Shown here piece by piece: positions 7,845 to 30,728 of a stretch of DNA of 32,000 nucleotides. How positions within the stretch are numbered: the first letter of the stretch is position 1; each line of letters opens with the position of its first letter. The stretch covers positions 30,001 through 62,000 of the forward strand of contig NZ_SNUY01000009.1 in NCBI RefSeq assembly GCF_004376175.1, in the 5' to 3' direction. Made by a program: the position numbers and the translations under genes. The notes beneath the pieces were generated by a model. It made no database searches and was not told where the DNA came from. It saw only the letters and a list, made by a program, of their open reading frames with translations. The stretch comes from Halalkalibacterium halodurans. Its GTDB lineage: Bacteria; Bacillota; Bacilli; Bacillales; Bacillaceae_D.

Positions 7845-8162
7845 TTGGTCAACTGCTTTTTAGACACTCTCATCCATTTCCCGCTTACGTTCAATAAATG
7901 ATCCTCTTTTTTCTACACTTTCATCCTTATGATCGTACACATTTCTTCTACGAATTTTAACGTTACATCAACTTTCTCGATTCAAATAGTTACTTAATGT
8001 TTACAAATCTGATTCACACTGGCGCGGTCAAGGAGCCGTAAGGATGGAAGAGAGGTAGGGCTTTCATTGTTTCAGGTAATACTAAGTCATTATGTTCAAG
8101 AAAATAAGATAACTCACTCTCCATTCATAAAAGAAAAAATATTCACCATTGAAACGATGCCC

Positions 8163-28356: not shown

Positions 28357-28684
28357 ATGAAAGTCAAATGCATGGAGTCGTATCAAGAAACACCCGGGCT
28401 CTCGCTTCTGTTTCGCACGGACAGCATGGCGTTTTTTTGAGTGTAACGGACTTCGCCTTCTCTTAAGCCTTCCTGAAAAAGAGGCATACGCCCATTCGAG
28501 TTCGGTTGTCTATTTTCAAGTGGAGAGTATAAAGGAGATCTATGAAAAGCTAACCGATGAGGGGGTAACGTTTATCGATGAGCCTCACGTTGTGGCAAAA
28601 GTCGGGCAAACGGAAACATGGATGACCTTTTTTCACGATACGGAAGGAAACACGCATGCATTCATGAGCGAGGTTTCTGTCTAG
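28357..28684 (+). pseudogene. VOC/glyoxalase-family gene, frameshifted at a T7 run and lacking a normal N-terminus and RBS
   Basis: One frame (ATG 28357) reads MKVKCMESYQETPGLSLLFRTDSMAFF and stops. The next frame continues ECNGLRLLLSLPEKEAYAHSSSVVYFQVESIKEIYEKLTDEGVTFIDEPHVVAKVGQTETWMTFFHDTEGNTHAFMSEVSV. The junction is at T7, 28432-28438. Confidence 0.65.
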
Positions 28685-28944
28685 AACATGAAAAAAGGCC
28701 CGGCTAGCGGAGCGACGGAAAGAAAGGAATCACAGTGAGTTTTTGAAAAGGTGATGACGGATGGTAGGGGTGTCTTTCAGGATGCCCCTTCGTGTTGCCC
28801 CCTTGGCTAGACTTTCTGTGAAAAAGGTTACCTTTTAGATACCGACTTAACTTGGAGATGAATCGTTTGACAAAAGCGGTTGTTCCCTACTAAACCGAAG
28901 ACATTTTACCAGTTGTGTTCTTGAAATTTTTTTACCTGAACTAA

Positions 28945-28973
28945 TTGCTATTTTTCGAACATGCTGATAAGAT
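28945..28973 (+). promoter_or_regulatory. Sigma-A-type promoter heading the long leader of the polyamine operon
   Basis: TTGCTA, a 17-nt spacer, then TAAGAT. The predicted transcription start is near A28980. Confidence 0.55.
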
Positions 28974-29281
28974 AGAGGCATGAATTGGGAAGCTAATATT
29001 CAAATATACTTGAGAGTCTTTCCAAGCAGATAATTTTTGACCACTTCCTTTGGGAAGTTAAGGCAACGGTACGCCGGGTCAAATGCCGATTGGCAACTTT
29101 AGTTGCCTTATTGATTGAGTTAAAAGCTCAAATTTTATAAGTTGGTTACTTTACAACCAGTGCATACGCACGCAACTTGTGAAACGGTCAATAAGAGTGG
29201 TAAAAGTAATTATTTGCTATTAGACTCTGAACCTAAAAGATATATTTAAATATTAATAAGCTTTCTACTATAGTGCTCCCA

Positions 29282-29337
29282 AAGCTTAAGGTAGATGTAT
29301 CCATACAGCCTTTTTATGGGTACACTTATGCTTTTTT
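29282..29337 (+). terminator. Leader terminator T1 (long composite hairpin plus T-tract)
   Basis: AAGCTTAAG-gtagat-GTATCCATA-loop-TATGGGTAC-a-CTTATGCTT followed by TTTT. An upstream TAAGCTT (29257-29263) can pair with the 5' arm as an alternative structure. Confidence 0.6.
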
Positions 29338-29352
29338 AATATTGAATATATG

Positions 29353-29396
29353 AAGCAAGTGTTGTGCGTGTTGATGCGCTATGCACTTGCTTTTTT
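29353..29396 (+). terminator. Leader terminator T2
   Basis: AAGCAAGTG ... CACTTGCTT followed by TTTTTG, about 100 nt upstream of the first polyamine gene. Confidence 0.7.
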
Positions 29397-29495
29397 GTTG
29401 CCCACTGGCTCGTGTTTTAACAATCTTTTTATTCGGCAGATTGTCATGGATTTCCTCTTTTTACTTTTAAAAATTTTATGTTAGGAGATATGCAA

Positions 29496-30728
29496 ATGGG
29501 AAAAGCACTTATTATCGGTTGTGGTGGTGTAGCATCGGTCGCGGTCCACAAGTGTGTTCAAAACAGTGAAGTCTTTGAAGAGATTTGTATTGCGAGCCGG
29601 ACAAAATCAAAATGTGATGCGTTAAAGGCAAAACTGGATGGCGGCAAAACAAAGATCACAACGGCACAAGTAGATGCTAACAATGTGGATGAGCTAATTG
29701 CTCTTATCGAAGAAGTGAAGCCTGACGTTGTCATGAATTTGGCGCTACCTTATCAAGATTTAACGATCATGGATGCGTGTCTTGCCACAAAAACCAACTA
29801 TTTGGATACGGCAAACTACGAGCCAGAAGATACGGCTAAATTCGAATATAAATGGCAATGGGATTATCGCGAGCGCTTTGAAAAGGCGGGCATTACCGCA
29901 CTTTTAGGTAGCGGATTTGACCCAGGGGTGACCGGTGTATTTTCTGCTTATGCGCTAAAGCATCATTTTGATGAAATTGAATATATCGACATTCTCGACT
30001 GTAACGCAGGGGATCATGGGTATCCATTTGCGACGAACTTCAATCCTGAAATCAACATCCGTGAAGTGTCAGCGAACGGACGTTATTGGGAAAATGGCGA
30101 ATGGGTCGAGACGAAACCAATGGAAATTAAACGTGTATACAACTTCCCTGAAGTTGGCGAGAAAGATATGTACTTGCTTTACCATGAAGAGCTTGAATCT
30201 CTTGCAGTCAACATTCCAGGAATCAAACGGATTCGTTTCTTTATGACCTTTAGCGAAAGCTATCTAACGCACTTAAAATGCCTTGAAAATGTGGGCATGA
30301 CGTCCATTGAGCCAATTGAATTTGAAGGGAAGGAAATCATTCCACTTCAATTTCTGAAAGCTGTCTTACCTGACCCTGCTTCTCTTGGCCCGCGCACAAA
30401 AGGGAAAACGAACATTGGTTGTATCTTTAAAGGGAAAAAAGACGGTAAAGATAAAACGTACTATCTATACAACGTTTGTGATCATGAGGAATGCTATAAA
30501 GAAGTGGGCTCCCAAGCCGTTTCTTACACAACTGGCGTTCCAGCCATGATCGGTGCGATGATGCTTATGACTGGAAAATGGAATAAGCCAGGAGTATATA
30601 ACATTGAAGAGTTTGATCCAGATCCATTCATGGAAGCGTTGAACAAGTGGGGACTTCCTTGGAAAGAAGACCACAATCCTCAGCTTGTCGACTCTGATCC
30701 GATTAAAGAGACGGAGCTTGTTCGTTAA
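29496..30728 (+). CDS. Carboxy(nor)spermidine dehydrogenase/synthase (saccharopine dehydrogenase family)
   Basis: MGKALIIGCGGVASVAVHKC..., GFDPGV, NAGDHG..FATNF.PE, YTTGVPA and NPDPFME-type blocks match recalled Vibrio CANSDH. ATG 29496 lies 7 nt after AGGAGA. Confidence 0.9.
   Translation: MGKALIIGCGGVASVAVHKCVQNSEVFEEICIASRTKSKCDALKAKLDGGKTKITTAQVDANNVDELIALIEEVKPDVVMNLALPYQDLTIMDACLATKTNYLDTANYEPEDTAKFEYKWQWDYRERFEKAGITALLGSGFDPGVTGVFSAYALKHHFDEIEYIDILDCNAGDHGYPFATNFNPEINIREVSANGRYWENGEWVETKPMEIKRVYNFPEVGEKDMYLLYHEELESLAVNIPGIKRIRFFMTFSESYLTHLKCLENVGMTSIEPIEFEGKEIIPLQFLKAVLPDPASLGPRTKGKTNIGCIFKGKKDGKDKTYYLYNVCDHEECYKEVGSQAVSYTTGVPAMIGAMMLMTGKWNKPGVYNIEEFDPDPFMEALNKWGLPWKEDHNPQLVDSDPIKETELVR

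Follow-up and report, generated by a model that had tools for sequence, protein, structure and literature searches.

An extended ldcC RNA leader with a predicted role in transcription attenuation upstream of carboxyspermidine genes in Halalkalibacterium halodurans

In its original description, the ldcC motif is a bulged hairpin whose bulge may form an invariant pseudoknot with the 3' tail; it was widespread among Firmicutes, lying in front of decarboxylase and potA genes, and a probable link to polyamine homeostasis was proposed, with no ligand given and no carboxyspermidine-pathway genes among the associated genes named (Weinberg et al. 2017, NAR 45:10811, PMC5737381). Another RNA, the spermidine riboswitch of Firmicutes, is a variant of the SAM-I riboswitch that is associated with ldcC, speE and speB and works as an OFF switch via an intrinsic terminator; it is rare (13 representatives), and its ligand was shown experimentally (Salvail et al. 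2023, Cell Rep, PMC10853860). Here we report an ldcC motif in the 5' untranslated region (UTR) of the genes for carboxyspermidine dehydrogenase and carboxynorspermidine decarboxylase (nspC) of Halalkalibacterium halodurans. The stretch analysed, called the window, comprises 32,000 nt of contig NZ_SNUY01000009.1. All position numbers are window coordinates, and the leader and the polyamine genes are on the plus strand.

The region 28945-29396 probably comprises a promoter and a full-length ldcC RNA, which as a leader would act in cis and, through transcription attenuation, set the read-through into the dehydrogenase and nspC genes. By sequence comparison, the leader is a member of a known, still orphan family, the conserved unit of which exceeds the catalogued motif about eightfold in length. 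No description of such an extended ldcC RNA, and no later study of the ldcC ligand or mechanism, was found in the literature searched. We further propose, more tentatively, that the 54-nt motif is a fragment and that the sensor is a multi-helix RNA of 200-250 nt (P0, the motif, H1, P2/H2/P3/Ja/Jb and P5), which would gate a distal terminator via the segment ACUUGUG, with a clamp between the P0 loop and the region after P5 in Bacillales. Such an RNA would represent a widespread polyamine-responsive riboswitch class distinct from the SAM-I variant.

The locus resembled the published motif in its match over all 54 positions, its hairpin with the conserved bulge and 3' tail, and its location in a polyamine-gene 5' UTR of a Firmicute. 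Whereas the published motif and model cover 54 nt, the leader here and that of every relative examined was far longer and extended to a terminator. The SAM-I-variant spermidine riboswitch serves similar gene types and is the obvious functional analogue, but its fold is unrelated and its parent family RF00162 had no match in the window. In the M-box Mg2+ riboswitch, a large multi-helix leader compacts on cation binding and sequesters an antiterminator strand, and the terminator forms. This is a mechanistic analogy only, as neither sequence or structural homology nor an Rfam match to the M-box was found. The speFL leader of Enterobacteria and antizyme frameshifting also provide polyamine control, which depends on a conserved translated open reading frame (ORF). 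The ldcC leader would share with them polyamine-responsive control from a 5' leader; its own mini-ORF was not conserved (4/31 leaders).

The ldcC motif and the conserved unit around it

Rfam family RF02440 (SpF59_sRNA / ldcC RNA) matched positions 29038-29089 (+) with 53.3 bits over model positions 1-54 of 54 (E = 1.4e-8), above the gathering score of 37.2 bits, which showed that this segment is a bona fide RF02440 member. A previous reading of the DNA from its letters alone (the sequence-only reading) had matched the leader to no known class and had named a confident Rfam hit as a result that would speak against it; such a hit was found. The Rfam comparison it had suggested was run, with RF02440 matched and the two families it had singled out, T-box RF00230 and lysine RF00168, without a match, like SAM-I RF00162, in 28650-29550 even at E <= 10 with permissive filters. 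No other Rfam family was found over the extension beyond RF02440, either in the window or in the relatives. The L-box-like wording was not borne out, as no L-box match was found either: "ATGCCGA" is the conserved tail of the ldcC motif, and the ACTTCC/TTGGGAAG hairpin and AAGGCAAC were pieces of the same motif.

Within the motif, the inner stem (P1b) covaried at 6/6 pairs, and the outer stem (P1) was 98% paired, its first pair being UA in 37 sequences and GC in 28. The conserved bulge and 3' tail (AAGGCCAUACGGACAGCCGGGUC..UGCCGA) were present in the window as AAGGC--AACGGUACGCCGGGUCAAAUGCCGA, with a 2-nt deletion and a changed tetraloop. This minority variant of the loop (AAGGC--AACGG, 2 nt shorter), found at 29059-29076 of the window and in the relatives numbered L001, L003, L008 and L026, had a CGG/CCG mini-hairpin capped by UACG, UGUG or UUCG, not by ACAG. 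Minority-variant copies scored 42-53 bits on RF02440 and most relatives 67-77, and the window was down at 53 bits because of its shortened loop with CGG-UACG-CCG. The changing tetraloop supports a putative third small helix within the motif, which RNAalifold also predicted. The nucleotides of the published possible pseudoknot between bulge and 3' tail were invariant across the leaders, so that no covariation was possible there.

To compare the leader with its relatives, 80 genome loci with an orthologous dehydrogenase were collected, and the comparison sets consisted of 31 Bacillales leaders and metagenome loci (about 130 relatives). A covariance model of the motif and its extension (R1, 202 positions) matched 31/31 Bacillales leaders at 202-237 bits, where RF02440 gave 42-77. 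The metagenome loci were found by an aptamer 23-mer alone, which returned 120 loci; the 100 that were searched with R1 all matched, 88 at full length and 12 cut by contig ends. Rfam, by comparison, saw just the 54-nt piece in 13 diverse examples. Among the genome loci, the motif was present in 18 of the first 20 scanned and, by R1, in 30/80, all of them Bacillales or unclassified Bacillota genomes and metagenome-assembled genomes (MAGs) from several genera. It was located 350-460 nt upstream of the dehydrogenase start codon in 28/30 of these loci, and upstream of a decarboxylase-speE-dehydrogenase operon in the other two. No ldcC leader was found within 3 kb upstream in the remaining 50 dehydrogenase loci (L010, L013, L031, L033-L053, L055-L080), which include Clostridia, Streptococcus and three Bacillales-named records; these genes are presumably internal to a longer operon or controlled differently.

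The conserved unit added about 60 nt (P0) in front of the 54-nt motif and about 300 nt behind it, for about 400 nt overall, with the motif forming the 5' quarter of the longer leader. The roughly 150 nt that follow the motif were nearly invariant. The 206-nt core had a mean identity of 91%, whereas the neighbouring gene averaged 54% at its third codon positions, which indicated selection on the core at the nucleotide level and ruled out recent horizontal transfer as the source of its conservation. A protein-coding extension was ruled out by 1-nt indels (CACACAAC vs CACAUCAAC), by the deletion and expansion of H2 and by a stop of L086 in the sole candidate frame.

Anatomy and conservation of the full leader

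The order of the conserved leader was promoter, P0, ldcC motif, H1, P2/H2/P3/Ja/Jb, P5, P6, intrinsic terminator and gene. In the window its features are as follows.

28945..28973 (+): promoter, -35 TTGCTA 28945-50, 17-nt spacer, -10 TAAGAT 28968-73; extended -10 TGaTAAGAT 28965-73
28980..29033 (+): 17-codon mini-ORF, ATG 28980 opening MNWEANIQIYLRVFPSR and a stop; judged an incidental frame
28985..29025 (+): P0, 5'-terminal hairpin, UUGGGAAG / CUUUCCAA with a 25-nt loop, then the conserved GCAGAUAAUUUU linker at 29026-29037
29038..29089 (+): ldcC motif, P1 29038-42/29077-81, P1b 29043-48/29053-58, conserved internal loop, CGG-UACG-CCG mini-hairpin, tail AAAUGCCGA
29092..29107 (+): H1 hairpin, GGCAAC-UUUA-GUUGCC, a structural helix, although listed by a scan as terminator-like
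29109..29193 (+): junction domain closed by P2, UAUUGA 29109-14 / UCAAUA 29188-93, joining strand CGG
29115-19/29127-31 (+): H2, inside the P2 domain
29133-42/29175-84 (+): P3, 10 bp, UUUUAUAAGU / ACUUGUGAAA, inside the P2 domain
29143-47/29155-59 (+): Ja, inside the P2 domain
29160-63/29168-71 (+): Jb, inside the P2 domain
29194..29228 (+): P5, consisting of P5a AGAGU/ACUCU 29194-98/29224-28 and P5b 29205-09/29214-18, with a conserved internal loop
29240..29351 (+): P6, long variable hairpin; base AU-rich, 29240-61 / 29330-51; interior of two variable hairpins
29352..29396 (+): intrinsic terminator T2, stem GCAAGUG 29355-61 / CACUUGC 29384-90, inner mini-hairpin, U6 at 29391-96
29397..29495 (+): post-terminator spacer with the Shine-Dalgarno sequence (SD) AGGAG at 29483-87 and no convincing second promoter

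The whole leader folded better than shuffled sequences (z = -4.85), and the helices were examined in two alignments. In A1, a MAFFT alignment of 70 distinct leaders from Bacillales and metagenomes, 97.7% of cells were paired, compared with 31-45% when the partners were slid, and 18 pairs showed double changes vs 8.9 +/- 1.1 in shuffles. RNAalifold independently predicted P2, H2, P3 and Ja. In A2, the metagenome set, 32/53 modelled pairs were compensatory vs 11.9 +/- 1.7 (P2 2, H2 5, P3 3, Ja 4, P5a 2, P5b 3), pair counts that are biased towards structure since this alignment was fitted to the model. The core helices thus covaried in related genomes, as the sequence-only reading had proposed to check. 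The U.G pairs in P3 were compatible with the plus strand alone.

H1, which that reading had already pointed out, was real and conserved, as all 6 of its pairs covaried and 99.8% of cells were paired. P2 was a perfect 8-nt inverted repeat. The 5'-terminal hairpin formed by TTGGGAAG (28985) and CTTTCCAA (29018), also noticed earlier, folded at -10.6 kcal/mol and was kept family-wide as P0: a hairpin ending at the GCA anchor was found in 71/84 distinct leaders with 27 different arm pairs, and 90% of cells were paired in the Bacillales alignment. Downstream of the core, 29229-29400 folded at z = -5.58 vs shuffles, and P6 was also listed as an inverted repeat. The base stem of P6 covaried in Bacillales, as did the modular P0/P6/terminator structure as a whole. 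Some relatives differed in length, with H2 absent from L108, L128, L155 and L156, an insertion of about 150-190 nt in P5 of L108 and L128, and an insertion of 60-100 nt in H2 of L133, L148 and L192. H2 and the P5 insertion sites behave as peripheral helices that would tolerate engineering. The junctions of the core, by comparison, hardly varied, either among the Bacillales genomes or in most leader types sampled from gut and sediment metagenomes. Leaders of this architecture occurred throughout the Bacilli, and contigs from gut and sediment metagenomes had distinct, GC-richer types of them; the comparison showed the motif always embedded in the modelled P0-motif-H1-P2/H2/P3/Ja/Jb-P5-P6-terminator architecture.

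The sequence-only reading had stated that no ORF explains the gap in front of the polyamine genes, and no credible ORF was indeed found in the gap of about 810 nt (28685-29495) between a short ORF ending at 28684 and these genes. That short ORF (28520-28684, +; 54 amino acids) is the putative "VOC remnant" of the earlier description; it matched no Pfam family at E <= 0.001. The proposed promoter TTGCTA-17-TAAGAT, the -10 of which is made an extended -10 by the TG at 28965-66, was unlisted by a consensus scan because only 8/12 consensus positions matched, and by itself it was at chance level. Although it was weak by consensus, its position was kept: in about 30 relatives the -35 and -10 stood at a constant distance from the leader RNA, and an A/T-rich tract often lay upstream of them. 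The transcription start is predicted near A28980.

The terminator, its proposed competitor and alternative explanations

A hairpin with a U-tract was found at most 215 nt from the core in 103/106 leaders, and 92% of cells in the T2 region were paired in Bacillales. The claim of two tandem terminators held for T2, which was strong and conserved. "T1" (29282-29337) was lineage-specific, occurring in the window and some Bacillaceae, and corresponded to the interior of P6, with its U-tract (29332-37) paired in the P6 base stem. Since such an extra hairpin with a U-tract was present in only 15/67 leaders, T1 was rejected as a conserved second terminator. The distance from the terminator to the start codon was about 40 nt in some relatives (L004, L026). 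In the window, a consensus scan gave no plus-strand promoter match in 29397-29495, and a second promoter with TTGTCA at 29441 was rejected because no acceptable -10 was found at 16-18 nt and the spacers of relatives were about 40 nt. The short spacers and the lack of a second promoter indicate that the genes need read-through of T2. Several Bacillaceae with long post-terminator spacers carried a box TTGTnATGGAaTTCCTC between terminator and SD (window 29446-29457, ATGGATTTCCTC; L002, L005, L011); it was not an anti-SD, and no promoter could be made of ATGGATTTCCTC at 29446-29457.

The best complement of the terminator 5' arm in a scan of the whole leader was the 3' segment of Jb/P3, ACUUGUG(AAA), in 59/72 leaders. 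In the window this segment is the following.

29167..29181 (+): proposed antiterminator strand X, the Jb 3' arm and ACUUGUG of P3, complementary to 29356-29368 (terminator 5' arm) at 11/13 positions

The duplex of strand X with the terminator 5' arm had an energy of -16.5 kcal/mol, and the median z of such duplexes vs shuffles was -3.25. In L083 the two strands formed 13 perfect pairs, and in Bacillales 91% of cells in this pairing were paired vs 21-54% when slid. The central claim of the sequence-only reading was supported: the carboxyspermidine genes are preceded by a cis-regulatory leader that resembles a riboswitch or attenuator and has competing arms. The pairing conserved across the family as a candidate for such competition is that of the P3 3' strand with the terminator 5' arm.

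Because the invariant ACUUGUG of the P3 3' strand complements the terminator 5' arm, the arrangement suggests an OFF-type attenuator responsive to polyamine supply, with ligand and switch direction predicted. The folded multi-helix core would lock ACUUGUG in P3, the terminator would form and the genes would be OFF. A ligand, with spermidine or a related polyamine as the most plausible choice, may bind to this fold and stabilise it, and the long-range pairing between P0 and the region after P5 may act as a clamp on it. If the core was not stabilised, ACUUGUG would pair with the terminator 5' arm and RNA polymerase would read through. Given the genes regulated, the obvious candidate for the effector would be the end product of the pathway, spermidine or a relative.

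Besides the bias of the A2 counts, several observations weigh against this attenuation reading. P2, P3 and P5a were almost invariant, and their support came from a few divergent sequences (L085, L118). The antiterminator pairing showed no compensatory change within Bacillales, and native strand X pairs beat cross-lineage pairs modestly (p = 0.039) in a weak test with 12 groups. In nearest-neighbour calculations the terminator state was the more stable one, by 13 kcal/mol for the full leader and 5 kcal/mol for the nascent transcript; a factor may therefore be required for read-through, or the switch may work the other way round. Finally, the extreme invariance of the unpaired segments would also fit a protein-binding site.

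This last point leads to protein-mediated attenuation, in which an RNA-binding regulator or other macromolecule would read the invariant single-stranded junctions and set the choice between terminator and antiterminator, with no small-molecule sensing. Long unpaired stretches were indeed invariant in A1, such as GUGAAACGG and AGUAAAAG; an antitermination factor would be in line with the predicted energies, by which termination is the default; and no ligand was reported for the ldcC family in the literature found. However, riboswitch binding pockets just as typically have invariant junction nucleotides, the operons behind the leader differ and the leader types are diverse, and we regard a protein reader as unlikely. 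The main product could also be a stable trans-acting small RNA of about 415 nt ending at T2, with its position upstream of polyamine genes being secondary. The Rfam type of RF02440 is "Gene; sRNA" (SpF59), the terminator is strong and conserved, and the 5'-terminal hairpin could stabilise the transcript. Nevertheless, a polyamine gene always followed the RNA directly on the same strand; in some relatives only about 40 nt lay between the RNA and the start codon, with no second promoter; and the terminator 5' arm keeps a conserved competitor within the leader. A function mainly in trans is therefore improbable, and it would not exclude control in cis.

A leader-peptide attenuator, in which translation of a leaderless 17-codon upstream ORF would couple the ribosome position to the choice of hairpin, is very improbable. 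As the sequence-only reading had noticed, the ATG at 28980 falls on the predicted transcription start, and the frame it opens (MNWEANIQIYLRVFPSR and a stop) spans P0. The in-frame ATG was found in only 4/31 Bacillales leaders and was absent from the other 27, including the closest relative (L001), so the ORF was rejected as a conserved feature. In addition, the length of the P0 loop differed among relatives by non-multiples of three, and the common C-terminal "...FPSR" before the stop follows from the conserved RNA sequence GUCUUUCCAAGCAGAUAA. A diverged lysine riboswitch or T-box, suggested by loose word matches only, such as ATGCCGA, can be practically dismissed, since RF00168 and RF00230 had no match at E <= 10 and RF02440 was the sole family above threshold.

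Three other exchanges of pairing partners suggested by the window were present in its sequence but were not kept across the family. The arm TTGGGAAG of P0 (28985) recurs at 29050 in the inner stem of the motif, one of 5 copies in the window vs 1.45 expected; a swap of partners between P0 and the inner stem was rejected because the inner stem covaried independently, with CUUAC/GUAAG in L005 and GCCC/GGGC in the GC-rich type (e.g. L082). The segments TAAGGCAAC (29059-67) and GTTGCCTTA (29102-10) formed a perfect 9-nt complement, by which AAGGCAAC (29060) would compete with GGCAAC for GTTGCCTT. This 9-mer was found in the minority loop variant only (window, L026), and most relatives had only AAGGC:GCCUU. 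The perfect complements AGTGCATA (29159-66) and TATGCACT (29380-87) would join the Jb 5' arm to the terminator 3' arm; about 2 such 8-mers are expected by chance per 500 nt, and the partners of the 3' arm were scattered across the family.

The clamp of the proposed attenuator involves a candidate long-range helix between P0 and the region after P5.

28986..29019 (+): long-range strand A (candidate), the P0 5' arm, loop and AGAGUCU 29013-19, complementary to strand B 29222-29267

Strand B consists of the P5a 3' strand AGACUCU (29222-28) and the P6 5' strand. The A:B duplex had an energy of -24.6 kcal/mol in the window (z = -7.6). Across 86 leaders the median z was -2.8, and native duplexes averaged -20.8 kcal/mol vs -15.6 for cross-lineage ones in this alignment-free comparison. 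The signal came from about 5 independent lineages, with the diagonal being the minimum in 3/5 rows and 4/5 columns of the matrix of major lineages. No column-wise covariation of the A:B helix was found in Bacillales, and the P0 loop against P6 alone gave a median z of -1.0 in an AU-rich region. This candidate helix appears to be conserved less firmly than the P3/terminator competition and not family-wide. It would enclose the motif and its extension and would be topologically incompatible with the antiterminator, and would thus act like the P1 helix of a riboswitch.

Regulated genes and implications for polyamine control

The two genes behind the leader are the following.

29496..30728 (+): gene 1, carboxy(nor)spermidine dehydrogenase/synthase of the saccharopine-dehydrogenase family, PF03435 and PF16653
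30730..31857 (+): gene 2, carboxynorspermidine decarboxylase nspC, TIGR01047, 497.5 bits vs a cut-off of 409

Gene 1 scored 426.7 bits on NF043000, below the cut-off of 800, and its closest genome locus was that of Salirhabdus sp. Marseille-P4669 (96% amino-acid identity). The public gene call starts at ATG 29478 (416 aa), whereas ATG 29496 (410 aa) is the likely start, favoured by the SD AGGAG at 29483-87 and by the alignment of orthologues (MGKALIIG...). Among 113 leaders, the first gene downstream was an Orn/Lys/Arg decarboxylase in 50, carboxyspermidine dehydrogenase in 33, AdoMet decarboxylase in 13 and PotA in 11. Two other RNAs were encountered in the searches. A BsrC sRNA (RF01410) was located at window 7994-8080 (-) with 95.1 bits vs a gathering score of 38, in agreement with an origin of the window in the Bacillaceae, and a Bacillaceae-1 RNA (RF01690, 78.6 bits) lay downstream of the polyamine genes at L023 6787-6853 (-), a Rummeliibacillus MAG.

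To our knowledge, the rare SAM-I variant is the only RNA sensor validated so far for polyamine homeostasis in Firmicutes. The ldcC motif is much commoner than that riboswitch, and if the extended unit proposed here is correct, a truncated definition of the aptamer could be one reason why the ldcC family has remained without a ligand. If the unit is about 400 nt long, binding and termination assays should use the whole leader instead of the 54-nt motif, and an extended Rfam model would become possible and would make annotation far more specific. The competition of the P3 3' strand with the terminator 5' arm is a concrete hypothesis open to mutagenesis. In H. halodurans, the leader accounts for the 0.5-kb "empty" gap, and it predicts that the dehydrogenase and nspC would be controlled by premature termination at 29391-96.

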